From contig DFRJ01000002.1 of the NCBI GenBank assembly GCA_002378195.1, forward strand, positions 129,054 through 193,053: 64,000 bases of DNA, given 5' to 3'. The stretch is from Patescibacteria group bacterium UBA3466. GTDB lineage: Bacteria; Patescibacteriota; Minisyncoccia; Phycocordibacterales; UBA918. The notes beneath the pieces are model-generated. The model was not told the origin of the DNA, made no database searches, and worked only from the letters and a program-made list of their open reading frames with translations. The number at the start of each line of letters is the position of its first letter. Positions within the stretch are counted from its first letter, which is position 1. A program made the position numbers and the translations under genes. Below are positions 20,111-45,410 of this stretch, piece by piece.

Positions 20111-20130
20111 GCCTCTAAGAAGCGTGCAGT

Positions 20131-20400
20131 CTAGCTAACTAAGGCTGGTACTTTTTCGTTGGTGCGATTGATGCAGATAGTAGATCTTTCAATGTTGCTG
20201 CAGGTGGTTGTGGTAAGTGAAGTTGGAAGGTTGTCCAGTTGCTTTTGGTGCTCAACAGCGGATTGAGGGAAGGCGATACCGAGCTTAACTGAGCCAGTTT
20301 CTTTAGCTACGATACTAACTGTAACCAGAGTTTGCTTCTTGAAGGTTCTGATTTGTACATTGTTCACTTGCATCGTACTAGGGTTGAAGATCACGTGCAA
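20131..20400 (-). CDS. Hypothetical small protein
   Basis: 89-aa ORF between the palindrome and the recombinase remnant; no motif recognised. Confidence 0.35.
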   Translation of the reverse strand: MHVIFNPSTMQVNNVQIRTFKKQTLVTVSIVAKETGSVKLGIAFPQSAVEHQKQLDNLPTSLTTTTCSNIERSTICINRTNEKVPALVS

Positions 20401-20523
20401 CTCCTCACATTGTTTGTTTGATAGTGAGTGCTGCAGTAGGAAATTGATAGTTTCCTCTTTACCATAGTTTAGAGTAGGGGCTTTGAATAAGTTTAGTTTT
20501 GATACGTAAGGGCTGGTAAGTGA

Positions 20524-21675
20524 ATTGTTGTCTGCGAAAAGCGAGAGTCGTACTCAGCTAAAGCGTCTGGCAAGCGACCTGTATTTCAAGAGCTACTCAA
20601 TGAAATAGATTCAGGAAAATATAACGGAATACTCACATGGGCACCTGATAGATTGAGTCGTAATGCTGGTGACCTAGGTTCAGTCGTTGACTTAATGGAT
20701 GCGAAGAAGTTAGTTCATATACAAACCTATGGGCAAACTTTCAGTAACTCACCAAACGAGAAGTTTCTCCTAATGATTTTATGTTCTCAAGCAAAACTAG
20801 AGAACGATAACAAAAGTCAGAATGTACGACGAGGACTCCGAGCTAGGGTTGAAATGGGATTATGGCCGTGCCGACCACCGACTGGCTATACTAAATTCAA
20901 ACGTATGGATCAGAAGTGTGAATCTGTAATTGATCCAGAACGAGCGCCAATCATTAAGCAGATATTTGAGAAGATTGGTTATGATGGCTGGAGTGGTCGC
21001 AAACTCCATATCTGGCTTCGGGATGAATTAGATTTCAAAACTGAGAATGGTAAGCATCTCAGCCTAGGTAATCTTTATCGTATTCTTGAAAACCATTTCT
21101 ACTACGGACGGTTTGAATATCCAAAGAATTCAGGGAAATGGTATGACGGCGCACATGAACCAATCATTACCAAAGAGTTATTCATCATTGTTCAAGAGCA
21201 GATTAAGAGTCAAATACTTGAACCACGTTCACAACAAAAAGAATTTGCGTTTACCAAAGTAATGACGTGCGGACTCTGTGGATCAGGAATCACTGCTGAC
21301 GAGAAATTCAAGAAACAAAAGAATGGCAACGTCCACCGCTATGTCTATTACAAATGCACTCGCACTAAAGATCCTAATTGTGACTGTGGCTTCATCAATG
21401 AAAACGACCTCATATCACAACTACAAAACCTGATTGATGATATTGACATCAAAGTAGTGCCGATGAGAGACAAGATTACTTCTGAGGTTAAAAGATATAA
21501 ACAATTTCAGCACATGTTACTGGGAAAAGAAGAAAAGATTGCTGTTAGTAATATTGATATTAGGAATTATGCGAAGTTCATTTTACAAGAGGGCGATATA
21601 GAAGAAAAAAGAGAGTTTCTACGGTGCTTAAAAAGTGCAGTTGTGCTGAATAAAAAAGAAGTCTCACTCGTCTAG
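20524..21675 (+). pseudogene. Large serine recombinase, 5'-truncated (N-terminal catalytic Ser region missing)
   Basis: In-frame translation from 20524 gives ...YSAKASGKRPVFQELLNEIDSGKYNGILTWAPDRLSRNAGDLGSVV..., i.e. the resolvase catalytic-domain C-terminal half, then recombinase domain and zinc ribbon (CGLCGS...YYKCTRTKDPNCDC). In-frame stop at 20521 and no YxRVST nucleophile segment in any upstream frame. The ORF track only starts at TTG 20653. Confidence 0.6.
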
Positions 21676-21805
21676 TCCATAGGCCATCATTTGCTTTTTT
21701 TGGACTAAAGTGTTTCACTATTTGAGTATACGTTGCTCCAATACTTTTTGCCTCACACATTTTCTCCGAGGTACTTACAATTTAACTAATTAAATAAATA
21801 TATAT

Positions 21806-22624
21806 ATGATCGAATGGTTTTTAGCCTTGGGTCCTGTGACTCAAGCGCTCTTAGCAGGTTGTTTTACTTGGCTCGTTACTGCACTCGGTGCATCAGGAGT
21901 AATCTTCTTTAAAGAAATTAACAAAAAAGTTTTAAACGGAATGCTAGCCTTTGCGGCTGGTGTGATGATTGCGGCCAGTTTTTGGTCGTTACTCTCTCCG
22001 GCAATTGAATTATCAGAAGGCGGTCCACTGCCAAAATGGTTACCACCTTTAATAGGATTCTTACTCGGTGCTGCAACTTTGTGGGTAATGGACAAAGTAA
22101 TACCTCACTTACATCTCGGTGCACCTATGTCAGAAGTTGAAGGGGTGAAAACATCTTGGCATCGAAGTTTGCTTCTGGTTTCATCAATTACACTTCATAA
22201 CATCCCTGAAGGATTGGCTATTGGTGTTGCTTTTGGAGCGGCAGCGGCAGGTATTGAAGGAGCAACAGTTGCAGCAGCGATTGCTCTAGCAGTTGGTATT
22301 GGTATACAGAATTTCCCAGAAGGTGCAGCAGTTTCCGTTCCACTGAGACGAGAAGGGTTTACTCGCTTGAAAGCGTTTTGGTATGGTCAATTTTCAGGAA
22401 TGGTTGAACCAATCTCAGCGGTGTTAGGAGCTGCGTTGGTGATAACGTTCTCACCCGTTTTGCCGTATGCACTCGCTTTTGCTGCTGGAGCTATGATGTT
22501 TGTAGTTGTGGAAGAATTGATTCCTGAAGCCCAGCGCGGTGGTCCAGGTATGGCAGACTTCGCAACAGTTGGAGCGATGATTGGTTTTGCTGTAATGATG
22601 TCATTAGACGTAGGATTAGGTTAA
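21806..22624 (+). CDS. zupT: ZIP-family zinc transporter (ZupT-like)
   Basis: 8-TM ZIP topology with [10 protein letters not shown] and [10 protein letters not shown] metal-binding motifs. Confidence 0.8.
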
Positions 22625-22629
22625 AAAAT

Positions 22630-23535
22630 ATGTCACACAACCATCATCACGGACGTGGACACCATCATCACCACGTAGGTAGAGGTGGCAATATTTTGTT
22701 TGCTGCCATCCTAAACCTTTCTTTCACCATCATTGAAATCATTGGTGGTATTTTGACCAATAGCGTTGCTATCCTTTCTGACGCACTTCATGACTTAGGT
22801 GACAGTATTGCTTTGTTTACTGCCTATATTGCTGAGAAACAATCCGAACGCTCACCAGATAAAAAACGCACCTTCGGGTATGCTCGCATTTCAGTTTTCT
22901 CAGCCCTCTTTAGTGCCGTGATTCTGATTGTTGGTTCAATCTTTATTTTGACGGAGGCTATTCAGAGATTATTCAGTCCGGAACCAGTTCACGCTACTGG
23001 AATGATTCTATTAGCAATCTTTGGAGTAGGGGTAAACCTTGTGGCGTTCTTTAGATTAAGCAAAGGAATGAGTGCCAATGAAAAAGTGCTGTCATGGCAC
23101 TTACTTGAAGACGTGATTGGCTGGGCAGCTGTACTGGTTGGAGCCATCATCATCTACTTCACAGATTTCTATCTCATTGACCCAATCCTAACCGTTGGCT
23201 ACACCCTGTTCATTCTTTGGGGTGTTTATGGGGGTCTCAAAAATGTCATCAATATCTTCATGCAGGGGACACCGGCCTCGGTTGATATAGAAAAAATCAA
23301 AGAGGCGATTCTAGAAGTTTATGAAGTTCAATCAGTTCACGATATTCACGTGTGGTCGCTAGATGGTGAGCACAATGTTTTGACCTGTCACGTAGTACTT
23401 GATAATGGCACTATAGCTGAAACGAAGAGGATCAAGGAGAGTATAGAAGATAAAATGAAATCATTCCACGTCAACCACACAACAATTGAGTGTGAGATTG
23501 AAGGAGAGTGTGTTGGAAAAGACTGTAGTCACTAG
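22630..23535 (+). CDS. czcD: Cation diffusion facilitator Zn/Co/Cd efflux protein with His-rich N-terminus
   Basis: MSHNHHHGRGHHHHH tail; 6 TM with HxxxD motifs (LSDALHDLGD); C-terminal cytoplasmic domain. Confidence 0.85.
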   Translation: MSHNHHHGRGHHHHHVGRGGNILFAAILNLSFTIIEIIGGILTNSVAILSDALHDLGDSIALFTAYIAEKQSERSPDKKRTFGYARISVFSALFSAVILIVGSIFILTEAIQRLFSPEPVHATGMILLAIFGVGVNLVAFFRLSKGMSANEKVLSWHLLEDVIGWAAVLVGAIIIYFTDFYLIDPILTVGYTLFILWGVYGGLKNVINIFMQGTPASVDIEKIKEAILEVYEVQSVHDIHVWSLDGEHNVLTCHVVLDNGTIAETKRIKESIEDKMKSFHVNHTTIECEIEGECVGKDCSH

Positions 23536-23598
23536 TTTGTTGGAATGTAGACATATCGTTTAATCTTATGTATTTATCTGATAAAATGGTCAGGATAT

Positions 23599-24003
23599 AT
23601 GCGGAAATTACTTAGTGCTAATTCGATACGTAGAATACTAATTTTCTTCGGAATTGGTTTTTTCTTGTTGGCAGTGACCCTGTGCGCGCACTTTGCCAAC
23701 CCTACTGATCACGCTAGTGATACCAGTGCTGTTACGTGTGATTTGTCGGAAATAATCTCATCAGTTTCTGTATCAAATAAAAGCATGGGACTATTGTTCC
23801 TGTTAACGCTTTTAACACTAGCGTCCCTTGCTTTACCTACCATTTCTTCATACCCAAAAGCAGAGGTATGTTTGAAGTCACTACATCTACAAACCTATTC
23901 AATTACAAATGAATCTTGGTACAAAGTTTTAGATCCTTTTTTACTTGCGCTCCGTAAAGGAATCATACATCCTAAGCTATACAATACAGCGATAATTAGC
24001 TAA
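23599..24003 (+). CDS. Hypothetical membrane protein
   Basis: Two hydrophobic segments; no motif. Confidence 0.3.
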   Translation: MRKLLSANSIRRILIFFGIGFFLLAVTLCAHFANPTDHASDTSAVTCDLSEIISSVSVSNKSMGLLFLLTLLTLASLALPTISSYPKAEVCLKSLHLQTYSITNESWYKVLDPFLLALRKGIIHPKLYNTAIIS

Positions 24004-24105
24004 CGATTCACGGCTGCTGATAAGTCAGCTTTTCGTGATATATGTTGGCTTTTTTGCTATTCATTTATTTGCTCTAGAACGTTAAACACAAAACCTATTA
24101 ATTTT

Positions 24106-24864
24106 ATGGAAGAAACTATTACACAGAAACCCACCAACCCGTACCTGATACCCTTGGCTATCGTTGTTGCTGGCGGGTTGATTGCAGGAGCGTTGTATTT
24201 CGGCACAAGTGGAAACGCGGTAGCTCCAGTAGCGGTAAACAATAATGCTGAACAACCAGCCCAACCAACACCACAGCCAACTGGTTCAACCGATGCTGTT
24301 AAACCAGTTACAAGTGAAGATCATATTAAGGGAAATCCCAATGCGCCAATAAAAATTGTTGAATACTCAGATTTTGAATGCCCATTCTGTAAGCGGTTCC
24401 ACGACACGATGAATGAAGTCATGGATAAATACGGTGAGAGTGGCGAAGTCGCTTGGGTATTTAGACAATTCCCATTAGAGCAGTTACATCCAGTAAAAGC
24501 TCAGCGAGCAGCGGTTGCATCAGAGTGTGCAGCAGAATTGGGAGGAAACGATGCGTTCTGGTCGTTTACTGACGGATACTTCGTAGACCCCTCAACTGGA
24601 AACAACCGGACTAATCAAGACGTGTTAATTCCTGAATTAGCAGCTGCAGCTGGCCTGGACAGTAATCAGTTTAATGAATGTCTTGAAAGCAGTAAGTACG
24701 ACGATCATATCGCGGCTGATATCGCCAATGCGGTCGAAACTGGCGGGCGCGGAACTCCGTGGAGTGTCATGATTGGTCCTGATGGTGCAACGTACCCAAT
24801 TAACGGTGCGCAACCCCTAGCGGCAGTTGAGCAACTCATCTCAATTGCGAAAGACGGTCAGTAA
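24106..24864 (+). CDS. DsbA/BdbD-like thiol:disulfide oxidoreductase, membrane-anchored
   Basis: N-terminal TM; thioredoxin fold with CPFC active site (DFECPFCKRFHD). Confidence 0.75.
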   Translation: MEETITQKPTNPYLIPLAIVVAGGLIAGALYFGTSGNAVAPVAVNNNAEQPAQPTPQPTGSTDAVKPVTSEDHIKGNPNAPIKIVEYSDFECPFCKRFHDTMNEVMDKYGESGEVAWVFRQFPLEQLHPVKAQRAAVASECAAELGGNDAFWSFTDGYFVDPSTGNNRTNQDVLIPELAAAAGLDSNQFNECLESSKYDDHIAADIANAVETGGRGTPWSVMIGPDGATYPINGAQPLAAVEQLISIAKDGQ

Positions 24865-24869
24865 CTATC

Positions 24870-25418
24870 ATGTACCTCAAGACGTTTAAGCAAGTTCTGG
24901 CAAAATCCGTCTATGCGGGACTGTTTCTAGCGGTGAGTTTTTTTGTGCTGTCGATTGCCATCTTGTTGCCACACATCGGACTGTTAAAAACCTTATGGCA
25001 GTACGAATCAGTGTCGTTACTCGAAATCGGGTTGATGACTGTGAATCTCTACGGTTCACTAGGAACAAATTTTTCGTTTCTGTCAGCAACATACACGATA
25101 CTCATTGCCGTATTATTTGGTCTACAAGTAACTCTTCTCACCTATTACGTCAGGAGTATACGGAGCAAAATAACCAATCTCACCAGCGTAGGTGCTAGTA
25201 GTATCGGCGGCCTCGTTAGTGGATTTTTCGGCATTGGTTGTGCCGCTTGTGGAACTTTCTTACTGTCTTCAATTCTTGTTTTGTTTGGTGCAGGTGGCTT
25301 ACTCGCTTGGCTACCCTTTGGTGGAGAAGAGTTCGGTTTGCTTGGTGTGGGGCTGCTCTTGTATGCCAATCACATCGTCGTAAAGAAAATAAATGCACCA
25401 CTAGTGTGTGCATCGTAA
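24870..25418 (+). CDS. Polytopic membrane protein with intramembrane CxxC (GIGCAACGTF)
   Basis: 4-5 TM helices; CAAC within a helix; directly downstream of the DsbA-like gene, so possibly its redox partner. Confidence 0.4.
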   Translation: MYLKTFKQVLAKSVYAGLFLAVSFFVLSIAILLPHIGLLKTLWQYESVSLLEIGLMTVNLYGSLGTNFSFLSATYTILIAVLFGLQVTLLTYYVRSIRSKITNLTSVGASSIGGLVSGFFGIGCAACGTFLLSSILVLFGAGGLLAWLPFGGEEFGLLGVGLLLYANHIVVKKINAPLVCAS

Positions 25419-25445
25419 TCAAAATTTATTCTTAAGTAATTAAAC

Positions 25446-25979
25446 ATGAAACCATTAATAATTATTGTTGGTCTATCAGTACTCCTTCTCGTAGGTGGTT
25501 CGTGGTGGTCAAACAACGCACAACAGAAAGTATACGAACAAGAAATTGTCGGTATTACATCTACTATTGTGACAGATCGTAGCCATGTACAGACTGAAGT
25601 AGACTACAAAGACACTCCTCCGGTTGGTGGGAATCATCATCCTGTCTGGTTGAGCTGTAATGGCGACATCTACGATGAGCCAGTGGTAGATGAAAATGCG
25701 GTTCATTCACTTGAGCATGGTGCCGTCTGGATTACCTATCAGCCAGAACTTGCTGCCGAACAAATTGAAATTCTCAAAGGTAAAGTGAAAGGATACTCTT
25801 TCATGAGTCCGTACCCAGAACAAGAGTCACCAATTATGCTCACAGCGTGGGGTGTACAACTTCCACTTGATGCAGCTGATGATCCTCGGATAGATCAGTT
25901 TCTAGCAAAATTCCGCCAAGGACCACAAACGCCTGAGCCGGGTGCAACCTGTAATGCCATTCCGGGAGGAATGCAGTAA
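25446..25979 (+). CDS. DUF3105-family secreted/anchored protein
   Basis: N-terminal anchor; GGNHHPVW...HSLEHGAVWITYQP pattern typical of DUF3105. Confidence 0.55.
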   Translation: MKPLIIIVGLSVLLLVGGSWWSNNAQQKVYEQEIVGITSTIVTDRSHVQTEVDYKDTPPVGGNHHPVWLSCNGDIYDEPVVDENAVHSLEHGAVWITYQPELAAEQIEILKGKVKGYSFMSPYPEQESPIMLTAWGVQLPLDAADDPRIDQFLAKFRQGPQTPEPGATCNAIPGGMQ

Positions 25980-25987
25980 ACTGAACT

Positions 25988-26611: not shown

Positions 26612-26620
26612 AGAAATAAT

Positions 26621-28535: not shown

Positions 28536-28549
28536 TCTAATTTATTAGT

Positions 28550-30505: not shown

Positions 30506-30507
30506 AT

Positions 30508-30966: not shown

Positions 30967-30993
30967 GAAATTGAGTTATCTAACGATTGCACA

Positions 30994-36824: not shown

Positions 36825-36851
36825 GTCAAATAGTATAATCGATACATCCAT

Positions 36852-37247: not shown

Positions 37248-37295
37248 CTAATAAAAACAGCAGAGCATTCTGCATTTATTAGCTTAGAAATATGT

Positions 37296-37955: not shown

Positions 37956-37974
37956 TAACAAAAGTAAATAAAAT

Positions 37975-39690
37975 ATGAAATATATAAGCATTGCAGTACT
38001 CGCTCTCGTTCTGATTGGAGGAGGAGCGTGGTACTACACAAATAACATGCATTCCATGATGAATATGGACGGCATGATGATGGGACAAGAAATCCCTGAA
38101 AAAGAAAACTTATCAATCCTACATGACTCAGATGTTCCAGAGGTAAAACCAACAGAAGTCGTTGAGCTCAAGGATGGCGACACTTTTGACCTCACTGCTT
38201 CAATCGTGAAGCAGAAAGTTGGCAATCGAGAAGTAAAACGACTGGCATATAACGGTCAAATTCCTGGACCAATTCTTAAAGTGGAAAAGGGTTCAGAGGT
38301 GACCGTGAACTTCACGAATAACATCGATATGGAAACGTCGCTCCACTCACACGGTTTGCGAGGAGACTGGCAGATGGATGGTGCAGTGCCGATCACTCCA
38401 CCAGTAGAAATTGGCGAGACGTTTAGCTATCAACTCGAATTTCCTGACACTGGGGTCTTCTGGTATCACCCGCATGTTCGTGAGGACTACCAGCAAGACA
38501 TGGGCCTCTATGGCAACATGATTGTTGAAGAAGATGGATATTGGAACGAAGTAGACCAAGAGGAGTATCTCATCATTGATGATCTTCTTGAAGACGGTGA
38601 ATATAATCGTGCAATGGTCACTAATACACTGATGGGTCGTTTTGGTGACACTTTGCTCATTAATGATACAGAAGACTACGAACTCACGGTCAATCAAGGA
38701 GAAATTACTCGTGCGTTTATCACTAATGTAGCGAATACTAGAACCTTTGAGCTTGAATTTGAAGGAGCTGAGATGAAGCTAGTTGGTGGTGACTTAGGGC
38801 GTATTGAGCAGGAGGAAATGATTGAACATCAAATCATCGCTCCAGCGGAACGATACATCATTGAACTCTACTATGATACTCCAGGCACATACGCCATTGA
38901 CCACCGTGGTGAATCAATCGGAACAGTGACTGTGCAGCCGTCAGGTACAAACCAACAAGCTGAATTCTCGCAATTGCGGTCAAATGCTGGTGATTATGCA
39001 GAACTTCGAGCAAACACGTCAGCGTTGCTAGCAAAAGCACCAGACAAGAATCTTCGACTTGATATCGAAATGAAAGGTATGGGTGGTATGCAAATGATGC
39101 AGCAGATGATGGGAGGAGATTCTGACGGTGAAACCGTAAACCTTATGGGGATGGAAATGAACCGTGAGCAAGCTATTGAGCATTGTCAGATGATGCCAGG
39201 TATGGCTGGCTGCGAACCGTTCCTAAACGCTGAAGAAGAGTCAGATAGCATGGGAGGGATGGTGATGGGAGGAGATGAAGAACATAGTGAAGATGGAATT
39301 GAATGGGAAGATGATATGGCTATGATGAACAATATGAGTAACGACGAGATGATGGAATGGGTCATTGAAGACACTGATACTGGTGCTAAGAATGACGAGA
39401 TCGACTGGTCGTTTGAGACTGGTGATTTGGTGAAGGTGCGTGTATACAATGATGAAAATGGCATGCACCCAATGCAACACCCACTCCACTTCCACGGACA
39501 ACGTTTTGTTGTGTTGGCTACTGACGATGAACTTAACGAAAACATGCAGTGGAAAGATACTGTGTTGATTCCTAAGGGACAGACAGTAGATCTACTGGTC
39601 GACATGAGCAACCCAGGTAAATGGATGGCGCATTGTCACATTGCTGAACACCTGCACTCAGGGATGATGTTTAACTTTGAAGTGAAATAG
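37975..39690 (+). CDS. Multicopper oxidase (CueO/CopA-like) with Met-rich insertion
   Basis: Four Cu-site motifs (HSHG, WYHPH, HPLHFHG, HCHIAEHLHSGMM); long Met-rich insert (MGGMQMMQQMMGG...MMPGMAGC...MAMMNNMSNDEMMEW). Confidence 0.85.
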   Translation: MKYISIAVLALVLIGGGAWYYTNNMHSMMNMDGMMMGQEIPEKENLSILHDSDVPEVKPTEVVELKDGDTFDLTASIVKQKVGNREVKRLAYNGQIPGPILKVEKGSEVTVNFTNNIDMETSLHSHGLRGDWQMDGAVPITPPVEIGETFSYQLEFPDTGVFWYHPHVREDYQQDMGLYGNMIVEEDGYWNEVDQEEYLIIDDLLEDGEYNRAMVTNTLMGRFGDTLLINDTEDYELTVNQGEITRAFITNVANTRTFELEFEGAEMKLVGGDLGRIEQEEMIEHQIIAPAERYIIELYYDTPGTYAIDHRGESIGTVTVQPSGTNQQAEFSQLRSNAGDYAELRANTSALLAKAPDKNLRLDIEMKGMGGMQMMQQMMGGDSDGETVNLMGMEMNREQAIEHCQMMPGMAGCEPFLNAEEESDSMGGMVMGGDEEHSEDGIEWEDDMAMMNNMSNDEMMEWVIEDTDTGAKNDEIDWSFETGDLVKVRVYNDENGMHPMQHPLHFHGQRFVVLATDDELNENMQWKDTVLIPKGQTVDLLVDMSNPGKWMAHCHIAEHLHSGMMFNFEVK

Positions 39691-39707
39691 TCATTCACTT
39701 CTCATAC

Positions 39708-39740
39708 AAAAACAGCCTCAAATGAGGCTGTTTTTGTATG
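39708..39740. terminator. Bidirectional hairpin terminator
   Basis: AAAAACAGCCTCA-aat-GAGGCTGTTTTTG between the MCO gene and the convergent 2TM gene. Confidence 0.65.
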
Positions 39741-39805
39741 CTTCTCGTGCTAGCACGAATTGGTGACCCACATTAGTTTAAATTGGAACCAAATAAGTCA
39801 ATCTA

Positions 39806-40726
39806 TTAGGTCTTTAGTTTGAATTTGTTAGTCATCTGGTACTTGTATAGTTTTTCAACGAAGTTCTTTTTTTCTTTCTTGTAGAAAGTTTCTTCTTTTT
39901 CAAAAAGTTTATTAATTCTTTCTTGTAGAGCAAGTGATATTATCTCAAGCATAAAAAGCGTCAGAAAAATAAGCAGGATAAGTATTGGGTTTGAAGCTGA
40001 GAAGTCTCCAAATGGCCAATTTTGCCAAGAAATAATCCCGCCTATAAAGCTAATCAACAGTACTGAGAACAATAGGTTCTTTGAAATATAAAAATAATTA
40101 AAGAATGGCTCAATATCTTTCTGCTTCACCAGTTCTTCTTTAGTCCCTTGTTGAAAATGATAAATATCGATCGAAAGCTGTGCTCTCGATTCATATTTTT
40201 TGTTAGCTAACCAAAAAACAAACTTCAAAATAAGTTCATTTAAGGTGTTAAGTTTTCTTTTCCAAAACATTCTGTCTGAAAGGTGGTTGCTTTCTAAGAC
40301 CTCCACAAAGTCATTTATAGATATTTCCTTTCCTGTTTTTAAAACTTTAACCTTTTTGTCTGCAGTAAATTCAAATTCGCGATCTCTTTCAACTTCTCCG
40401 GATGAATAATAATTCGTCACTCTTTTTTTGTACTTGTCTCCATCAGTTATAGAATATGATATTTCAGGCTCTTCACCCTTGGGTTCAGTCATGTTTACTG
40501 AGTACGATATTTTTTCACCTTCAACTGAAACCTTGATGAACATTTTCATGTTGTCTTCAAAGTATTTTGTTTCTTCTGGGTAGTCTCTAATTATTGAAAA
40601 ACCGACACCGTCAATAAAACCGACAGTTTTCTCGTCTCTTTCTTTTTTAGTATATAGTTTTAATAATTCACTAGAATCCATTAGTTTGATTATGTAGACT
40701 TTACTCTTTATGTTATATCTTTTCAA
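39806..40726 (-). CDS. Hypothetical protein: soluble N-terminal domain plus C-terminal 2-TM hairpin
   Basis: AT-rich, Lys/Asn-rich; two hydrophobic helices near the C-terminus; co-directional with and 117 nt downstream of the NERD gene. Confidence 0.5.
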   Translation of the reverse strand: MKRYNIKSKVYIIKLMDSSELLKLYTKKERDEKTVGFIDGVGFSIIRDYPEETKYFEDNMKMFIKVSVEGEKISYSVNMTEPKGEEPEISYSITDGDKYKKRVTNYYSSGEVERDREFEFTADKKVKVLKTGKEISINDFVEVLESNHLSDRMFWKRKLNTLNELILKFVFWLANKKYESRAQLSIDIYHFQQGTKEELVKQKDIEPFFNYFYISKNLLFSVLLISFIGGIISWQNWPFGDFSASNPILILLIFLTLFMLEIISLALQERINKLFEKEETFYKKEKKNFVEKLYKYQMTNKFKLKT

Positions 40727-40842
40727 GCATGAAATATTCAGAAGAGATCATTGCAGAGTATAAGACTCTAATGAAACGTGACTATGACCACAAAGTCACA
40801 GACGACGAAGCTCAGTTGGAACTAAACAGTTTGGTAAAAGTT

Positions 40843-41673
40843 CTATTTGGTTGTGCTGGCAGTGACTCCAGTTTGTGTACTGAGAGGTATAGGAGTTAGT
40901 CCTTCTCCAGAATGTATAACTTCCAGATTTTCTGCGTGTTGCTCAGCGGTAACTTGTGTCTGGCAAAGAACGGAAAGTTTTCCTATGGCCATCAGTAACT
41001 CACCTTCACTTACAATTTCTTTTTTCTTTGATTCTATGTAATCGACTAAATCATCACCATGCATTACAGATGGTGGCATTTCAGTTTTAAACTCACTTTC
41101 TTCAGAAAAAACTATCACACTGTAGAAGCTTTTCTTCAAGAAAGGCATATGTTCTTTAAGGGCTGAGACATGAGCAAAGTTCTGAAGTATAGGGTTTTGG
41201 AAATGTGATTTCTTTCCCCAAAGTGTCTGAGTCCATTTCTTTTGGTTCTTGTGTCCAAATATCCATCCACTGTAATCTTTATTTTCAATTACAAAGATTC
41301 CGTACTTAGATACAATTATGTGGTCAATTTGTGTAGTTACAGTAACCGAAGAAGGAATGGTTATGTTGTTGAATATGTAATACTCTTTTGGATCCAAGTG
41401 TTCAGCTAAGTGCTTTACTAGTAGATACTCATAGCTTGTTAAATCATCTATGTAGCATCTGTGCCCATGCATCTCATTATTTGAAATACCCGTATCTGTT
41501 GACCACTTAGCAGTATGATTTGATCGAATACTTTGAGCTTCGGAGAGACGTCTTTTTATGTCTAAGCTTTCAGTTTCTGAATATGGGTTTCTCTTTTTTC
41601 GATTCTTAATCTTCTTGTATATCCATACAAAAAAGATTATCCAAAGAACACTAATAAAAAAGTCCTGATCCAT
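40843..41673 (-). CDS. NERD (nuclease-related domain) protein with N-terminal TM
   Basis: N-terminal TM; NERD-like core (HIIVSKYGIFVIENKDYSGWIFG). Confidence 0.65.
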   Translation of the reverse strand: MDQDFFISVLWIIFFVWIYKKIKNRKKRNPYSETESLDIKRRLSEAQSIRSNHTAKWSTDTGISNNEMHGHRCYIDDLTSYEYLLVKHLAEHLDPKEYYIFNNITIPSSVTVTTQIDHIIVSKYGIFVIENKDYSGWIFGHKNQKKWTQTLWGKKSHFQNPILQNFAHVSALKEHMPFLKKSFYSVIVFSEESEFKTEMPPSVMHGDDLVDYIESKKKEIVSEGELLMAIGKLSVLCQTQVTAEQHAENLEVIHSGEGLTPIPLSTQTGVTASTTK

Positions 41674-41715
41674 TAAGTCTAGTATATCAACGTAATTTTT
41701 CAGTAGTTGTTACAT

Positions 41716-41807
41716 ATACACCATCTTTAGCCGTGAAATCCCTCCTTTCGCTACGAAGCTTCGCGCTGCGAGCTTGCGAGCAGTGTGAAGGCGAAATGAA
41801 CGGCTAA
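41716..41807. repeat. Structured GC-rich intergenic element: 15-bp inverted repeat enclosing CGAAGCTTCG palindrome and GCGAGC direct repeats
   Basis: CACCATCTTTAGCCG ... CGGCTAAAGATGGTG arms flank ...TTTCGCTACGAAGCTTCGCGCTGCGAGCTTGCGAGCAG. Confidence 0.5.
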
Positions 41808-41809
41808 AG

Positions 41810-42571
41810 ATGGTGCATTTATTCACTTTTTATAGTACTTTGCTTCTAATGAACACAGTTGAAGAAGAAATGATTAAAGTTTTGGAATTGGTAGCTTTTA
41901 AATATGCTAAATGGGAAAAGCATAAGCTTGAGAACAATTCTGACCTACCAGAAATATCTCTGTATAAAGATGATTTTGAGGAAATGGGAATTACATATCA
42001 AGCAGCTTTGTTGCCTTTAAAGCAGCTTGAAGGTAAGGGAATGCTGATGATTGATCATATCTCTGATCCGCTTACCTTTGATCCAGAAAAGGATCCATTC
42101 GATGAAGAAGATATTGTTAATGGAAAATTGAGGGTCATGGTCTACAACTTAATTGTTGGAGGTTCATCTGTGTATCGCTACTTAGATGGTCTTAAGAATG
42201 GTTTTGAAGAGGACGAGTACACAAATAACTCACATGAAGCTAGCTTTGAGGAAGATGAGAGTATTTTAAATGTTGCTGGATATCAGATTAAAATCGCTTT
42301 GCAGGACAAGATAACTAACGACCATAAGATTTTAAACTACATCTTAAATCATGATGATGAAGAGGTTTACTATAAAGACATTGCGCAAAATGAATTTGGA
42401 GAGATAGCATATGGTGACAAAGATACTTCATGGAAGCGATACCATACATCTTGTAAATCAATCAACGATAAGGTTAGAGAGGTAACAAAAGGGAAGATCA
42501 ATGACTTTCTTATTTTTAATACAGGCAATAAAGGTAGAGTTAGAATTAATGGACTATACAGACATTCATAA
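41810..42571 (+). CDS. Hypothetical acidic protein
   Basis: AT-rich ORF flanked on both sides by GCGAGC-type repeats; no motif. Confidence 0.45.
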   Translation: MVHLFTFYSTLLLMNTVEEEMIKVLELVAFKYAKWEKHKLENNSDLPEISLYKDDFEEMGITYQAALLPLKQLEGKGMLMIDHISDPLTFDPEKDPFDEEDIVNGKLRVMVYNLIVGGSSVYRYLDGLKNGFEEDEYTNNSHEASFEEDESILNVAGYQIKIALQDKITNDHKILNYILNHDDEEVYYKDIAQNEFGEIAYGDKDTSWKRYHTSCKSINDKVREVTKGKINDFLIFNTGNKGRVRINGLYRHS

Positions 42572-42663
42572 AAGTTTACAGAATTTTAGGTAACTTCCTA
42601 GAACATAAAAAGAGTAACGTAGCACCATCGAGAGATGTGTGTTTTTTCTTTCGATCAACAGCC

Positions 42664-42722
42664 TAGGTCATTGTGCGAGCTTTCGCTTCGAAGCCTAGCG
42701 TGCGAGCGAAGCTCGCACGTGT
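42664..42722. repeat. Iteron-like GC-rich repeats upstream of the Rep gene
   Basis: ...TGTGCGAGCTTTCGCTTCGAAGCCTAGCGTGCGAGCGAAGCTCGCACG: GCGAGC direct and inverted copies and a CGAAGC motif. ~80% similar to the repeat at 41741-41789. Confidence 0.5.
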
Positions 42723-42746
42723 AGGACTTGATTAAAGGCATAGATA

Positions 42747-43604
42747 ATGAGAATGACAGAATATACTAATACAAAAATAGTTGCCGCTGGTCAGATTGTA
42801 CGCGTGACAAGGTATCTTGATGAGCCTGTCGCTTACAATTTTAAACGTAAAAAGGAAATTCCAATCGAAGGAATGTCTACTCGTGCTGAAAGAAGACGGG
42901 TGGCAAAAGAGGTTTATTGGACTCCTGAACGTCTCGAGAAAGAGCGTGAGCTAAACAGGAAGAAAGCAATGATCTCTGCAGCATCCCGCTTAAGAGACTG
43001 GGTGAACGCTAATGCGTGGCAGTATCGAGATGTGAATGGCCGTTTGTATCTGCCGGTGTTTGTGACGCTGACTTTTCGTGAGGATGTCAGAGATATAGAA
43101 ACAGCCAATGAGATTTTTACTTTATTTATAAAAAGATTAAATTTTTTCGTTCTTAAAGATAAGAGAGCAGAACTCAAGTATGTGAATGTTATTGAGTTTC
43201 AAGATAAGACTCGTGATGGAGTGATTCACTACCACACTCTCTTTTTCAATCTTCCATTTGTATACAAGAAAAAGCTCGAGAAGATTTGGGATCAAGGGTT
43301 TGTGAAAATTAAAAAGGTAGACAAGGTTAAGAATCTTGCTGGGTATATGACCAAGTACATGGTCAAAGGTTTTGATGATCCTCGTCTAGATGGCAAGAAA
43401 CGATATTTTCCTAGTAGAAACCTCATTAAGCCAACTGTGATTAGAGATGAGCTCACTGCAAAAGCTGTTCTGTTTCAATTGCCCGAAAAGAATCTTCATA
43501 AGGTTCGTGAGTTTGAAAGTGTTCATGTTGGCAAGGTAAAGGCTATGGACTTCATTCTCGATAAGGGTGAAACACTCCAAGACGTCATTGATTTTGTTAT
43601 ATGA
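42747..43604 (+). CDS. HUH-endonuclease rolling-circle replication initiator / relaxase-like protein
   Basis: HUH motif (VIHYHTLFF) followed by a Tyr-containing motif (AGYMTKYMVKG); upstream iteron-like repeats. Confidence 0.55.
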   Translation: MRMTEYTNTKIVAAGQIVRVTRYLDEPVAYNFKRKKEIPIEGMSTRAERRRVAKEVYWTPERLEKERELNRKKAMISAASRLRDWVNANAWQYRDVNGRLYLPVFVTLTFREDVRDIETANEIFTLFIKRLNFFVLKDKRAELKYVNVIEFQDKTRDGVIHYHTLFFNLPFVYKKKLEKIWDQGFVKIKKVDKVKNLAGYMTKYMVKGFDDPRLDGKKRYFPSRNLIKPTVIRDELTAKAVLFQLPEKNLHKVREFESVHVGKVKAMDFILDKGETLQDVIDFVI

Positions 43605-43779
43605 TCACCTTGTCTCGAATTAGAGAAATTGAACCCTCGTTGAGAGATGCTTCTGATGAAGAAGTTGCTCAAATTCGTGACCAAATCTATGGTTTAGCCC
43701 AGCTTGCTTATGATTGTTACAAAAAAGAGAATGATTCCAAATTCCCCATGGGGTCATTGCAAGTAGACGATATGAAGTA
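43600..43779 (+). CDS. Possible small helical protein (59 aa) between Rep and the recombinase
   Basis: ATG overlaps the Rep stop (ATATGA); ends TAG 3 nt before the recombinase ATG. Absent from the ORF track (short). Placement suggests a possible RDF/Xis-like protein. Confidence 0.25.
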
Positions 43780-43782
43780 GCT

Positions 43783-45321
43783 ATGTATGATAATCCTATG
43801 AAAGCAGGTAATGCAGTGATCTATTGTCGTGTATCGTCCCTAGAACAGGTTGAAGGAACCAGTCTTGAGTCTCAGGAACGTATGTGTCGAGACTACGCTA
43901 AAAGAGAAGGAATGGCTGTCTCAGAGGTGTTTATAGATCGTGGTGAGTCTGCTAAAACAGCAGATCGTACAGAATTTTTAAATGCCATATCGTACTGCTC
44001 CAAAAAGAAGAATGATGTCAGTCACTTCGTCGTATACAAGTTAGATCGCTTTGCCCGTAACCAAGAAGACCACATAGGAGTTCGTGCCAAGCTGAAACAA
44101 TATGGTGTCCAACTGCGCTCAGTCACTGAGCCGATTGATGATTCTCCAATGGGTAAGATGATGGAAGGTATCCTCTCTACTTTTGCAGAGTTCGACAACA
44201 ACGTTCGTACTGAAAGAAGCACAAACGGAATGAAAGAACGTCTTAAGAAAGGAATTTGGGTCTGGTCAGCACCACTTGGATACAAGCGTCTAGAGAAAGG
44301 TGGAAATTTAGTTCCTGATGAAGCAAACGCACACTACGTACGCATGGTTTTTGATGAGTATTCCAAAGGTGTTCATACATACAAAACACTAGCCACACTT
44401 TTATTTGAAAAAGGGTTTCGTTCCAAAGGTGGTAAAAAGATTCCGTTTCAAACTTACGAGAAGATGCTTAAGAATCCACTCTACTGCGGAATCATTAAGG
44501 TTGATACGTGGGGAGTTGAGATGAGAGGAGATTTTGAACCAATCATTTCAGAAGACCTCTTCAGGAAGTGTCAGGAGTCAGGTCGCACACACAAATCATT
44601 TTCAAAACTGACCAAGAACCCCGATTTTCCATTGAGGAAGATTGTTGTTTGTGAATGGTGTGGTGCTCCACTAACCGGTAGTTATTCAACTGGTCGTCAT
44701 GGAAAGAAGTATGGTTACTATCATCACCACAAGCAAGGTTGCCCTTGTGCTAGCTCGATCAGGAAGGATGATTTGGAGAAAGATTTTGTTTCTTTACTGG
44801 AAGAGATCAATCCGACTGTGCAGTACGCAAATCTGTTTAAAGAGGCATTCATGGAGATCTACAATGAAGAAAATAAGAAAAGCGAAGAGACTAGCGCTGC
44901 GGCTCAGAAAGAGCTTGAGAAACTGAAAGATAAGAAAGCTCATATCTATAACAACTTTGAAGATGGTGTGTACACCAAGACAGAGTTTTTAGAGCGTAAG
45001 AGGGAAGTAGACAAGCTTATCATTGCTGGAGAGTCAGTTATTGCAACTGAGGATACGTCAGACGTCGATATCGAGAAAGCGCTCGACTACTGCCTGAGCT
45101 TTGTTACTGACACACCAAACAAATGGAGTGAATTGGCAAAATACCCTGAAGAACGCTTGCGGTTCCAAAATTTTATTTTTGACGGCAATATTCCGTATAC
45201 ACAAAACAACGGTTTTGGAACCGCTGTTTTGTCGCCTATTTATTCGATATATCAGCATTGGCAGGCTGATAATTCTTCTTTGGTGATCCCACGGGGAATC
45301 GAACCCCGATTTCCAGGATGA
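43783..45321 (+). CDS. Large serine recombinase (integrase), intact
   Basis: N-terminal resolvase catalytic domain with nucleophile Ser (AVIYCRVSSLEQ) and KLDRFARN; recombinase domain; zinc ribbon (CEWCGAPL...GCPC); coiled coil. The 3' end overlaps the tRNA-Glu 3' end. Confidence 0.85.
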   Translation: MYDNPMKAGNAVIYCRVSSLEQVEGTSLESQERMCRDYAKREGMAVSEVFIDRGESAKTADRTEFLNAISYCSKKKNDVSHFVVYKLDRFARNQEDHIGVRAKLKQYGVQLRSVTEPIDDSPMGKMMEGILSTFAEFDNNVRTERSTNGMKERLKKGIWVWSAPLGYKRLEKGGNLVPDEANAHYVRMVFDEYSKGVHTYKTLATLLFEKGFRSKGGKKIPFQTYEKMLKNPLYCGIIKVDTWGVEMRGDFEPIISEDLFRKCQESGRTHKSFSKLTKNPDFPLRKIVVCEWCGAPLTGSYSTGRHGKKYGYYHHHKQGCPCASSIRKDDLEKDFVSLLEEINPTVQYANLFKEAFMEIYNEENKKSEETSAAAQKELEKLKDKKAHIYNNFEDGVYTKTEFLERKREVDKLIIAGESVIATEDTSDVDIEKALDYCLSFVTDTPNKWSELAKYPEERLRFQNFIFDGNIPYTQNNGFGTAVLSPIYSIYQHWQADNSSLVIPRGIEPRFPG

Positions 45322-45355
45322 GAACCTGGCGTCCTAGCCGTTAGACGATGGGACC
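45281..45355 (-). tRNA. tRNA-Glu (anticodon CUC), CCA encoded
   Basis: Minus-strand sequence GGTCCCATCGTCTAACGGCTAGGACGCCAGGTTCTCATCCTGGAAATCGGGGTTCGATTCCCCGTGGGATCACCA folds by hand into a cloverleaf: 7-bp acceptor, D arm, anticodon loop UUCUCAU, 5-bp T stem CGGGG/CCCCG with TTCGATT loop. Confidence 0.85.
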
Positions 45356-45410
45356 TGTTGGTAGCCAAAGAATACTAGCAAATTAAAGTAAAAACTTAAA
45401 GCAGTTTTAT

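Follow-up and report, generated by a model that had tools for sequence, protein, structure and literature searches.

Two serine-recombinase elements probably accreted in tandem at the 3' end of a tRNA-Glu gene in an uncultured marine bacterium

The region between hisS and tRNA-Glu(CUC) in the 64,000-nucleotide stretch analysed here (the window), from an uncultured bacterium of marine origin whose genome is small and which probably belongs to the Patescibacteria (Paceibacterota/Minisyncoccota), is accessory DNA acquired at the tRNA gene's 3' end. It very probably arose when two unrelated serine-recombinase elements, A and B, accreted in tandem. This reading is built on the gene content, the truncation of the integrase LSR-A, both joints of element B, the empty sites and a combinatorial set of junctions, all read directly, together with the intact element A of a 96%-identical strain (L130), whose contig does not reach the right end.

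The core gene hisS (18766–20016, minus strand; Pfam tRNA-synt_His, E 1.9e-47) bounds the region on the left, and its best GTDB relatives, from Saccharibacteria/Pacebacteria MAGs, are 56–59% identical. The assignment of the host to Patescibacteria is based on these hisS matches and on the source names of homologs rather than on rRNA or a tree of marker genes. On the right, tRNA-Glu(CUC) (45281–45355, minus strand; ARAGORN; Rfam, 60.4 bits), the shared integration target, adjoins an FAD-oxidase gene, and this adjacency is kept in 13 related loci. These two genes, the zinc/copper/thiol-redox array and the AT-rich Rep/NERD/recombinase module all lie where an earlier note on this DNA had placed them, and the gene content that it described between hisS and the tRNA was borne out by Pfam and NCBIfam. 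Its figure of about 30 co-oriented genes agrees with the 29 substantial ORFs found, but only 26 of these are on the plus strand, the exceptions being orf89, orf306 and the NERD gene.

The metal and thiol-redox cargo occupies 18 kb (21806–39690, plus strand) and comprises 22 co-oriented genes, from ZIP to a multicopper oxidase. Pfam and NCBIfam identified ZIP/ZupT-like and CDF/ZitB-like transporters, DsbA-like, DUF3105, DUF305, SurA_N, and M23 proteins, PAP2, a CsoR/RicR-like repressor, and a DUF7282-rhodanese protein. Two P1B ATPases are also encoded in the cargo, one of the Zn/Cd type (TIGR01512, 498 bits with the cut-off at 313) and one of the Cu type (TIGR01511, 552 bits with the cut-off at 397), as are a ferric-reductase transmembrane protein with an NAD-binding protein, two Sulf_transp proteins, DUF411 and a CueO-like multicopper oxidase. 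It presumably confers zinc and copper tolerance. The earlier proposal that the region was acquired, and mobilised by serine rather than tyrosine recombinases, is supported; relatives lack the metal genes at this chromosomal locus.

In composition the Rep/LSR module stands apart: its GC of 0.375 is 7 SD under that of equal-size flank windows (0.456 ± 0.011, minimum 0.433), and its tetranucleotide distance reaches 0.318, where no flank window exceeds 0.153. The departure of the metal part is slight (GC 0.438; tetranucleotide distance of its 5.5-kb pieces, 0.164–0.194 against the same flank maximum). Several contigs stop at a palindrome near hisS (20110/20123), at 21157–21161, at 45184 or inside the tRNA (45292, 45312), as might be expected if contigs of different organisms had been joined at repeats (the palindrome or the tRNA). 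However, independent ENA, NCBI, JGI and Logan assemblies span every junction at 100% identity: L002–L005 run from hisS into the metal genes, and L011, L012, L014, L135, L136, and L139 run from the metal genes through element B and the tRNA into the FAD-oxidase gene. Identity to the window is 99.97–100% in more than 15 contigs of independent assemblies, many of which cross junctions. We therefore regard an assembly chimera as extremely improbable. The perfect 36-bp palindrome itself (20075–20110), at which the assemblies L007, L008, and L010 break, has an exact second copy at 58693–58728; it is a repeated intergenic element outside the island.

The left-hand recombinase ORF (20653–21675) lacks a catalytic domain. 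It belongs to a 5'-truncated large serine recombinase pseudogene, ΔLSR-A (20538–21675, plus strand), which has kept just the recombinase and Zn-ribbon domains and lost approximately its first 53 codons, including the catalytic serine motif YARKSTES. Homologs of LSR-A are 431–440 aa long, and a complete N-terminus is present in locus L121. The DNA of L130 is 96.3% identical to the window from 20538 to the end of the locus, and this homology begins 158 nt into an LSR-A ORF that is full-length in L130 (431 aa; protein 99% identical over the window ORF). Since homology to an intact element begins abruptly inside a recombinase ORF, the hisS boundary is a deletion scar and not an insertion junction or att site, contrary to the earlier view of an insertion between hisS and the tRNA. 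Neither a tRNA-derived repeat nor an att-like sequence was found on the hisS side, and no relative shows the empty hisS/tRNA-Glu junction that had been suggested as a check. The 0.4 kb separating hisS from the scar contains orf89 (20131–20400, minus strand), which has no assigned function; Pfam, PHROG and PADLOC searches gave zero matches, and L120 has a homolog (42% identical) that flanks tRNA-Glu(UUC) on its host side.

Upstream of LSR-A, L130 carries a 7.5-kb module of a ParB-methylase, TerS, TerL (phrog_38, E 3.6e-75) and a CI/LexA-like repressor, which showed no recognisable module for capsid, portal or tail; downstream follows the same metal array as in the window. Locus L131 (LSR-A 90% identical) has the same backbone with a related metal/redox array after LSR-A. 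ΔLSR-A thus appears to be the remnant integrase of a metal-carrying element A. In the present strain the metal genes form a disabled island of about 19 kb, no longer self-mobile because its integrase is this truncated far-left gene.

The intact recombinase belongs only to element B, a discrete, nested, plasmid-like element with a 5.5-kb body (39767–45279, GC 0.375) delimited by composition and by empty sites in L133/L134 and L098. Its gene, LSR-B (43783–45321, plus strand; 512 aa; Pfam Resolvase, Recombinase, and Zn_ribbon_recom; PHROG integrase, E 1.9e-92), encodes the catalytic motif YCRVSS, and its PDB relatives are the SPbeta, A118, and TP901-1 integrases. As the earlier note had observed, it overlaps the tRNA 3' end: the stop codon (45319–45321) lies within the tRNA, the overlap is 41 nt, and the tRNA sequence encodes the last 13 codons and the stop codon of LSR-B. 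Preceding it are a rolling-circle replication initiator of the HUH type (42747–43604, plus strand; Pfam PF23343, E 8.9e-21; PHROG rolling-circle initiators), with the motifs HYH and GYMTKYMVK, and orf59 (43601–43783, plus strand), a small conserved 59-aa ORF always located between Rep and LSR-B. Precomputed annotation of related Reps contains faint RepSA Pfam matches. Family and PDB searches with orf59 found no match; it is 47–69% identical in L120, L121, L123, L124, and L126, and it is a candidate directionality or regulatory factor. The three cargo ORFs are orf306 (39806–40726, minus strand), without a family match in Pfam, PHROG and other searches and with a C-terminal part that looks membrane-spanning by eye; a NERD-domain protein (40843–41673, minus strand; Pfam, E 3.8e-29), weakly similar to PglW and MkoA in PADLOC; and orf253 (41810–42571, plus strand), which has no family match. 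The last sits upstream of Rep, where related elements hold a conserved ORF family of about 280 aa, to which it shows no similarity. A long hairpin at 41716–41818 (DNA fold −30.3 kcal/mol, z = −5.8) is a candidate replication origin, from which element B may replicate. It encloses a 40-nt core (41751–41791) that is 85–95% identical in other Rep/LSR-B elements by blastn, and 9 of its 24 pairs keep pairing through two-sided changes, in an alignment of only four sequences.

The ends of element B are the cores TTGGTGA at attL (39760–39766), with the crossover within the invariant GTGA, and at attR (45280–45286), whose complement supplies the tRNA discriminator plus an encoded CCA. The attL joint at 39.76 kb runs from ..GCTAGCACGAATTGGTGA into CCCACATTAG.., the attR joint at 45.28 kb from ..AATTCTTCTTTGGTGA into TCCCACGGGG.., and the uninterrupted site in L133/L134, which reads ..GCTAGCACGAATTGGTGA directly followed by TCCCACGGGG.., has a similar counterpart in L098. 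The reconstructed sites are attP ..TCTTCTTTGGTGACCCACATTAG.. and attB ..CACGAATTGGTGATCCCACGGGG... Locus L138, from the same species (99.97% identity), departs from the window exactly after 39766. At least three other organisms have the same Rep-LSR-B module overlapping a tRNA-Glu gene; these Rep-orf59-LSR modules, 60–65% identical, end within the tRNA genes, the overlap is again exactly 41 nt in L120 and L126/127/129, and the LSR C-terminus likewise overlaps a tRNA on the short contig L116. L124 contains a related 5.47-kb element between equivalent joints, with a matching attL. Every LSR-B gene ends in ..TTGGTGA, with divergence thereafter.

These joints bear on the earlier idea that the intact recombinase at the tRNA moved the whole region (20.1–45.3 kb) as a single integrative element of about 25 kb. 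One intact recombinase at the tRNA end, mostly co-oriented accessory genes and the absence of the region from the same locus in relatives would all suit such an element. It is nevertheless very unlikely: LSR-B is bound to a 5.5-kb unit with its own attL and attR, the internal joint at 39760–39766 coincides with a sharp GC step, the empty sites correspond to exact loss of the 5.5-kb part, and related LSR-B elements are about 5.5 kb long and lack metal genes. Moreover, the metal array of L130 adjoins a different, intact recombinase, and the left boundary, devoid of any tRNA-derived repeat or att-like sequence, falls inside a recombinase ORF.

For the two-element reading, the right end of element A is the P_A arm (39703–39759), a bidirectional terminator hairpin (39703–39740) followed by GCTTCTCGTGCTAGCACGAA. 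The arm matches the tRNA-proximal sequence of L133 at 91% identity over 69 nt, despite identities of only 52% for MurE and 59% for PBP, and is missing from closer relatives without LSR-A. Conservation of LSR-A itself far exceeds that of host proteins: its identity is 82% in L133, to be set beside the same MurE and PBP values, and 78% in L132 against 60–62% for PIF1 and FADox. By arithmetic, the L130 contig ends at the equivalent of about 39715, short of the right end; the placement of the metal cargo inside element A accordingly rests on junction logic and arm conservation. If the metal cluster were instead ordinary chromosome that was never mobile, with element A lying wholly to the left of LSR-A and element B on the other side, its near-host composition would be natural, as would the usual proximity of integrase genes to attP and the occurrence of DUF305, CsoR-rhodanese and similar genes elsewhere in related genomes. 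Nothing, however, is conserved directly 3' of the LSR-A stop codon in L130–L133, as an att site there would lead one to expect, and the conserved arm is found at the tRNA instead. The tRNA-Glu gene lies 1–3.3 kb downstream of an LSR-A-type gene in L132, L133/134, L107, and L105 with differing intervening cargo; between LSR-A and the tRNA, each lineage has a cargo of its own (metal genes, znuCBA-zur, an HD protein or small ORFs), and in L132 this chromosomal locus is devoid of metal genes. A tRNA is also downstream in 11 of 54 IMG/VR loci (viral contigs) with LSR-A relatives, in all 11 with its 3' end toward the recombinase. Finally, attL_A of L130 and L131 consists of the host tRNA trailer arm, which shows that integration of element A took place at the tRNA 3' end, so that everything up to the tRNA lies inside the element. 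We consider a chromosomal origin of the cluster unlikely.

An alignment of nine junctions taken from different genomes (alignment A3) shows a single joining point, GTGA..CC in the tRNA-Glu 3' end, with GTGA and CC invariant in every one. The junctions are combinations of four kinds of arm, belonging to the host, the LSR-A element, the LSR-B element, and the tRNA. Host arm B occurs in two empty sites, L109 and L104, as well as in attL_A of L130 and L131; arm P_A in attR_A of L133, the window at 39.76 kb and L138; and left end X in L130, L131, L138, and L121. In L130, L131, and L133 the X marker GTGACAAAWGTGACA is located 7.4–9.8 kb upstream of LSR-A. LSR-A and LSR-B are distantly related (about 23% identical). 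At least two, and probably three, LSR lineages occupy tRNA-Glu genes in this lineage.

We infer the order of events, and the catalysis of the joints by the two recombinases, as follows. An intact element A of about 27 kb would have consisted of left end X, the 7.5-kb module (repressor, ParB-methylase, small and large terminase), LSR-A, cargo and a right arm carrying the terminator and abutting the tRNA. In the present strain, a deletion would then have taken away the left end and the module along with the first 158 nt of LSR-A, leaving the metal cargo fixed beside hisS. Element B (Rep, orf59, LSR-B, and the three cargo ORFs) would have inserted later, between the right arm of element A and the tRNA. 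Both recombinases would exchange strands at GTGA on the plus strand, the complement of the tRNA ..TCAC end; since the element arms would supply ..TCACCAA, the tRNA would stay intact and gain an encoded CCA. Orf59 may control directionality. Neither an excised circle nor an attP junction was found for either element, and their activity is thus unproven. Tandem LSR integration into a site with an element-derived left half is not textbook behaviour, and implies that the tRNA half-site must dominate recognition.

The earlier note considered a serine recombinase at a tRNA unusual. Such integration is indeed rare, but has precedents in phiRSM and in Mycobacterium AICEs (PMC3218068, PMC4471427), and is the rule in the present lineage. 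The Ralstonia solanacearum filamentous phages phiRSM1 and phiRSM3, whose attP is 13 nt of the tRNA-Ser 3' end (PMC4471427, PMC3218068), resemble element B as small rolling-circle replicons (G2P-type Rep family) with a serine recombinase, a target at the extreme tRNA 3' end and a short core, which in element B spans 7 nt if exact, or 13 nt if one indel is allowed. Unlike the 512-aa large serine recombinase of element B, the phiRSM enzyme is of the small resolvase/invertase type; moreover, family searches recognised no morphogenesis (pI/Zot) or coat genes in element B, its attP lies inside the integrase gene 3' end, and the host phylum differs. AICEs of the pSAM2 type are actinomycete elements, and the serine recombinases of Mycobacterium AICEs target tRNA-Leu (PMC3218068, PMC2440964). 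Element B shares with AICEs a rolling-circle RepSA-type Rep, a site-specific integrase and a tRNA target, and has the gene order Rep, small ORF, integrase. This order of Rep, orf59, and LSR-B presumably matches repSA-xis-int of pSAM2. Element B differs in that family searches found no FtsK/SpoIIIE-type or other transfer gene, in its 5.5 kb (half the AICE size) and in its non-actinomycete host; most AICEs, furthermore, have tyrosine integrases.

LSR-B shares its domain architecture with SPbeta SprA/YokA, A118, TP901-1, Bxb1, phiC31, and SCCmec Ccr, and its best PDB and NCBIfam similarities are to large serine phage integrases and Ccr recombinases; a further likeness is that the att sites are short and minimally identical at the crossover. 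To our knowledge, characterised large serine recombinases integrate within protein-coding genes or between genes rather than at the 3' ends of tRNAs. Unlike them, two LSR lineages here use one crossover point in a tRNA. The L130 backbone of element A, with an integrase, a CI/LexA-like repressor and a terminase and no recognised capsid, portal or tail genes, resembles phage satellites (PICIs), but has a large terminase subunit, a ParB-methylase and a far larger cargo of 18 kb. Islander-type tRNA-targeted genomic islands use tyrosine integrases (PMC4383910), whereas the recombinases here are serine enzymes and the identity block is 4–7 nt instead of tens of nt; the displaced fragment is correspondingly tiny and was therefore missed by repeat finders. 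The likeness to Islander-type islands and tandem arrays lies in the tDNA 3' end target, the tRNA regenerated by element sequence, the adaptive cargo, tandem accretion and an island immobilised by integrase decay.

The earlier note read the whole interval between hisS and tRNA-Glu(CUC) as one island served by the intact recombinase beside the tRNA. This was not borne out: the joints of that recombinase, LSR-B, bound 5.5 kb (element B, 39767–45279), and the metal genes to its left are probably cargo of a second serine-recombinase element, element A. The list of genes running from hisS (18766–20016) to the tRNA (45281–45355, minus strand) was confirmed by Pfam and NCBIfam. The metal part encodes a ZIP/ZupT-like importer and a CDF/ZitB-like exporter; DsbA-like, DUF3105, DUF305, SurA_N, and M23 proteins; a Zn/Cd-type P1B ATPase (28550–30505; TIGR01512, 498.5 bits against a cut-off of 313.5), PAP2, and a CsoR/RicR-like repressor; a DUF7282-rhodanese protein, ferric-reductase-like transmembrane and NAD-binding proteins, and two Sulf_transp proteins; and a Cu-type P1B ATPase (34809–36824; TIGR01511, 551.9 bits against 397), DUF411, and a CueO-like multicopper oxidase. 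The AT-rich block consists of orf306, NERD, orf253, a PF23343 rolling-circle Rep, orf59, and LSR-B, in this order. The tRNA gene, the only one in the window, is intact (Rfam, 60.4 bits). Pfam detected no Phage_integrase domain within 20–45 kb, and both integrases are serine recombinases: the intact 512-aa LSR-B (43783–45321), whose stop codon lies within the tRNA with a 41-nt overlap, and the left-hand copy of LSR-A (20653–21675, with homology from 20538), which comprises only the recombinase and Zn-ribbon domains.

The AT-rich element B stands apart from the flanks, with a GC content of 0.375 versus 0.456 ± 0.011 in flank windows of equal size and a tetranucleotide distance twice the flank maximum. 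More than 15 contigs from independent assemblies are 99.97–100% identical to the window, and many of them cross its junctions; the arrangement is therefore real. Seven ORFs (orf59, orf253, orf306, orf89, orf134, orf182, and orf131) matched no Pfam family even at E ≤ 1, and searches of subsets of them against PHROGs, PADLOC, and PDB sequences gave no matches. The NERD protein shows only weak similarity to PglW and MkoA. Membership of orf253 in a conserved family of ~280-aa ORFs upstream of Rep was rejected because the sequences are not similar.

LSR-B is a large serine recombinase in domain content and length (512 aa; criterion, >400 aa). Its catalytic domain matches Pfam Resolvase (residues 11–158, E 3.1e-34) and contains the motif VIYCRVSSLEQ (catalytic YCRVSS), the N-terminal part matches resolvase and integrase catalytic domains in the PDB, and the C-terminal part matches Pfam Recombinase and Zn_ribbon_recom, with the cysteines CEWC..CPC. 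The protein resembles the integrases of SPbeta, A118, and TP901-1, with matches to the C-terminal domains from A118 and SPbeta, and has hundreds of homologues at 48–65% identity. The joint to the left of the AT-rich block (attL_B) reads ..GCTAGCACGAATTGGTGA|CCCACATTAG.. and that at the tRNA (attR_B) reads ..AATTCTTCTTTGGTGA|TCCCACGGGG.., so the core TTGGTGA occurs twice, at 39760–39766 and 45280–45286. The uninterrupted sequence ..GCTAGCACGAATTGGTGA|TCCCACGGGG.. is found in the related loci L133/L134, and a similar sequence in L098; these are therefore empty sites for element B. The tRNA 3′ end is regenerated by the element, and a displaced copy of the crossover lies at its far end. Both recombination products, attL and attR, and unoccupied sites were thus observed, which would narrow the LSR-B crossover to GTGA. 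The reconstructed attP_B reads ..GATAATTCTTCTTTGGTGACCCACATTAGTTTAAATTGG.. and the restored, element-free site ..GCTAGCACGAATTGGTGATCCCACGGGGAATCG... Integration appears to alter the C-terminal tail of LSR-B, which reads ..LVIPRGIEPRFPG in the integrated gene and would read ..LVTHISLNWNQISQSIRSLV if encoded from the reconstructed attP. Relatives found by means of the FAD-oxidase protein (FADox) encoded beside tRNA-Glu keep the synteny MsrAB-YgjP-PIF1-FADox-tRNA-Glu.

Rep (42747–43604; PF23343, E 8.9e-21) is an HUH rolling-circle replication initiator by its HUH motif HYH and tyrosine motif GYMTKYMVK. The order Rep, 53–67-aa ORF, LSR is constant in every context examined (six contexts), and the Rep-orf59-LSR module ends in tRNA-Glu at four independent loci. 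In L120 and L126/127/129 the LSR gene terminates inside tRNA-Glu(UUC) with an identical 41-nt overlap, in L116 the C-terminus of an LSR-B overlaps tRNA-Glu(CUC), and 5.47 kb before the attR of L124 lies a matching attL. All LSR-B-type genes end in ..TTGGTGA and are divergent beyond it. A long hairpin (41716–41818) encloses a GC-rich 40-nt core (41751–41791) that is 85–95% identical in L120, L124, and L126–128, and the surrounding stem co-varies among four sequences. We propose this hairpin as a candidate replication origin; the core matches no Rfam family, and a small RNA is a candidate alternative reading of it. No transfer, capsid, or morphogenesis gene of element B was recognizable in Pfam, PHROG, and PADLOC searches of its ORFs.

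In L103 (13046–13095), ~45 nt of LSR-B 3′-end sequence (CACCAAAGAAGATTTATCA..CTGATATATC) stands beside tRNA-Glu with no LSR gene, which looks like the scar of a lost Rep/LSR-B element. In L124 (9675–16641), a third element lies between the Rep/LSR-B element and tRNA-Glu(CUC); it encodes DpnII-type restriction-modification, an HTH protein, and a serine recombinase that is split into fragments and only 22–25% identical to LSR-A and LSR-B. The last of these fragments overlaps the tRNA. Two independent assemblies, L141 and L142, end or diverge at the same base (45183/45184) in the LSR-B 3′ region, just past an inverted-repeat arm (45159–45181), and past it L141 shows an unrelated ORF on the minus strand; the head of L141 is an odd AT repeat. 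Either the variant is real or a low-coverage chimera produced it.

The left-hand recombinase, LSR-A, is a pseudogene in the window. It lacks the Resolvase domain, an in-frame stop lies upstream, and homology starts at KRESYSAK, so that ~53 preceding codons including the catalytic serine are missing; full-length homologues have YARKSTES ~35 residues before this point. The family is very large, and its full-length members are 74–94% identical to one another across many hosts. In L130, a full-length LSR-A (99% identical in protein) is followed by the same metal array, with DNA 96.3% identical from window position 20538 as far as the locus extends, and is preceded by a ParB-methylase, TerS, TerL, a CI/LexA-like repressor, and a few ORFs without assignment. 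The homology between L130 and the window starts 158 nt inside the LSR-A ORF; the left boundary in the window is therefore a deletion scar. L131 (LSR-A, 90%) shares this backbone, together with a related array (DsbA/DUF7282/rhodanese/Cu-ATPase). The content differs elsewhere: the interval from LSR-A to the tRNA carries znuCBA-zur in L133/L134 and an HD protein in L107, and in L132, which shares the neighbourhood (MurE and Sua5 on one side; tRNA-Glu, FADox, PIF1, YgjP, and TruB on the other), the LSR-A gene is followed by only four small ORFs before tRNA-Glu. LSR-A is 82% identical in L133 versus 52% for MurE and 59% for PBP, and 78% identical in L132 versus 60–62% for PIF1/FADox. Conservation so far above that of the host proteins indicates horizontal spread.

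The boundaries of element A emerged from comparison of the junctions. No sequence is conserved directly 3′ of the LSR-A stop codon. The ~70 nt beside the tRNA are conserved, comprising a terminator hairpin with compensatory changes and GCTTCTCGTGCTAGCACGAA; they are 91% identical between the window and L133 and are missing in closer relatives without LSR-A. The marker of the left end (X), GTGACAAAWGTGACA, was first met past the point where L138 diverges from the window, and occurs again 7.4–9.8 kb upstream of LSR-A in L130, L131, and L133. Alignment of nine junctions revealed an invariant GTGA followed by CC, with the arms in differing combinations. The host trailer is joined to the tRNA in L109 and L104 (attB) and to X in L130 and L131 (attL_A). 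The right arm of element A (P_A) is joined to the tRNA in L133 (attR_A), to the element B arm P′_B at 39.76 kb of the window (attL_B), and to X in L138 (P_A-GTGA-GCCTTCTCGTGATGCG.., an A-to-A tandem joint or a circle). The other arm of element B, P_B, is joined to the tRNA at 45.28 kb (attR_B) and to X in L121, where an LSR-B element adjoins the left end of an LSR-A element. The combinatorial arms imply integration of element A at the tRNA 3′ end, with everything from X to P_A inside it, which would make the metal cluster its cargo. Arithmetic on the coordinates of L130 (8041–29336 of the 59,798-bp ENA contig ERZ869942 NODE_300), whose sequence stops before the right end, puts the intact element at about 27 kb. 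Element B would then have inserted into attR_A after the integration of element A.

L138 is 99.97% identical to the window (the same species), yet its neighbour beyond the shared GTGA differs, which shows natural polymorphism at this site. At 10961–11078 of L138, X of another LSR-A-type element stands where the window has the Rep/LSR-B element, and this X is closer to that of L131 than to that of L130. Accretion in tandem would require the left half-site to be recognized loosely and the tRNA half to dominate recognition. At unoccupied sites (L104 5534–5640, L109 12019–12120, L130 2375–2478, and L131 25–125), the host tRNA-Glu trailer contains a terminator hairpin, after which part of the tRNA 3′ half is repeated in inverted orientation (GTGATCCCAC..hairpin..GGGGAATCGAA); this pseudo-tRNA arm makes up the B half of attB. 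At the empty sites of L097, L101, L104, L109, L113, L117, and L118, tRNA-Glu is encoded without CCA. Most occupied sites examined (window, L098, L099/L105, L103, L116, and L133/L134; exceptions, L107 and L132) read ..TCACCAA, and in these the element arm supplies the encoded CCA.

The 7.5 kb between X and LSR-A in L130 contain TerS and TerL; no portal or capsid gene was recognized there, three ORFs had no match, and one backbone ORF matching a PHROG "tail protein" family also carries Pfam Lactamase_B. The left cargo bay of LSR-A elements, from X to the ParB-methylase, holds defence-type genes: a Hachiman-like pair (HamA and a DEAD helicase) and a Ymh protein in L133/L134 (L133 1321–5922), and a 1018-aa DEAD/ResIII helicase in L131 (2308–5364). 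In the marine contig L121 (4125–4712), X is separated from a full-length LSR-A gene by an MGS-domain protein. Over its first 54 alignable residues, this LSR-A shares 98% identity with the window copy; the variant has its integrase near the left end and lacks the terminase module. Of the LSR-A-like gene near tRNA-Glu in L105 (3219–6283; also L099), only a Zn-ribbon fragment is left, between an RVT_1 reverse-transcriptase gene (a candidate group II intron) and an IS3-family transposase. The independent assemblies L001 and L006 end within 5 nt of each other (window 21157–21161) inside the truncated LSR-A, which is consistent with numerous near-identical LSR-A genes coexisting in these communities. 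Several metagenome assemblies also break at 20075–20110, one of two identical intergenic copies (the other at 58693–58728) of a 36-bp perfect palindrome (TGTTACGTAGCATGTTAC/GTAACATGCTACGTAACA) that may be a REP-like repeat or an operator.

In order to view the LSR-A family more widely, 54 IMG/VR loci were collected, 53 by profile (43–69% identity) and one by a single-protein scan. A tRNA lies downstream of the recombinase in 11 of them (Glu, two; Asp; Gln, three; Ser, three; Asn; Trp), at spacings of 125 nt to 5.6 kb, and all 11 face the recombinase with their 3′ ends (chance probability ~0.0005). Targeting of tRNA 3′ ends is therefore a family trait, and cargo between the integrase and the att site is common.

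Other searches gave no result. A generic repeat search for att repeats over 19–46.5 kb returned nothing useful because the att core is too short, and LSR joints escape repeat finders because the identity block is 4–7 nt. A search allowing three mismatches found no second copy of the tRNA 3′ end, and the palindrome-like CTCGTGCTAGCACGA was rejected as a repeated att motif because it is present only beside the tRNA. The empty hisS/tRNA-Glu junction that the earlier note had proposed to seek in relatives was absent from the data compared. A scan of GTDB genomes with hisS gave nearest species, labelled Saccharibacteria or Pacebacteria MAGs, at only 56–59% identity, and synteny was therefore uninformative; the L018 context is unrelated. 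Exact-protein look-ups with hisS and the FAD oxidase returned only contigs identical to the window and no empty-site strain. L117 and L109 were rejected as empty sites of the whole interval, as their genes past the tRNA are unrelated to the left flank of the window. Circular-contig tests and viral-contig pattern scans found no excised form of either element: the ~5-kb contigs L121–L123, examined for circularity, showed no terminal overlap, and viral contigs contained no exact match to the P_A arm, to the X joint, or to the predicted attP_B. No relatives of LSR-B were found among viral contigs.

Homologues of both recombinases carry the NCBI names Candidatus Nomurabacteria, Pacebacteria, or Paceibacterota, and these names and the hisS matches point to a marine Patescibacteria-like host. 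The related loci lie on contigs of 0.49–0.8 Mb, suggesting that the host genome is very small; if so, the 25-kb accretion amounts to roughly 3–4% of it. By predicted function, it brings an essentially complete Zn/Cu kit of uptake, two efflux ATPases, a CDF exporter, a CsoR-type sensor, a multicopper oxidase, and thiol-redox support, and provides a boundary-resolved case of an ultra-small bacterium gaining niche-adaptive functions. LSR-A and LSR-B are ~23% identical, and yet they share the same GTGA crossover in the tRNA. The natural arms (attB, attL, attR, and hybrid joints) form substrate sets for studying target recognition by LSRs, and LSR-A homologues with defined short att sites could be candidate integration tools. 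For annotation, the extent of an island is not defined by an intact integrase beside a tRNA. It is possible, and we suggest this only tentatively, that at least two unrelated LSR element families, sharing one crossover at tRNA 3′ ends, form a lineage-wide system in Patescibacteria: one family of satellite-like islands that bear terminase genes and have two cargo bays (defence, and metal or other adaptive genes), and one of minimal integrative rolling-circle replicons. In genomes this small, such a system would be the main vehicle of adaptive gene exchange instead of tyrosine-integrase islands, and would rewrite the CCA-less tRNA-Glu to a CCA-encoding form.

To our knowledge, almost no mobile-element biology has been described for Patescibacteria. 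The gene order of element B recalls the repSA-xis-int order of pSAM2. Like pSAM2-type AICEs, whose Rep is of the RepSA type, element B has a rolling-circle Rep and a site-specific integrase at a tRNA gene, but no FtsK_SpoIIIE or transfer domain was found in its six ORFs even at E ≤ 1. It also differs from phiRSM-like inoviruses, as orf306, NERD, orf253, and orf59 gave no Zot, P-loop, or PHROG structural match. We found no description of LSR/tRNA-Glu elements in Patescibacteria in the literature, and a survey of horizontal transfer in this group is silent on recombinases and tRNA targets (PMC12455944). Elsewhere, serine recombinases act at tRNAs in phiRSM1 (tRNA-Ser) and eight Mycobacterium AICEs (tRNA-Leu) (PMC3218068), and the phiRSM core consists of 13 nt of the tRNA 3′ end (PMC4471427). 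Element B is like phiRSM1 and the Mycobacterium AICEs in combining a rolling-circle replicon, a serine recombinase, and a tRNA 3′ end. Both elements depart from the Islander definition in having serine recombinases instead of a tyrosine integrase. Element A resembles tDNA islands and phage satellites, and differs from them in using an LSR as its integrase and in carrying TerL.
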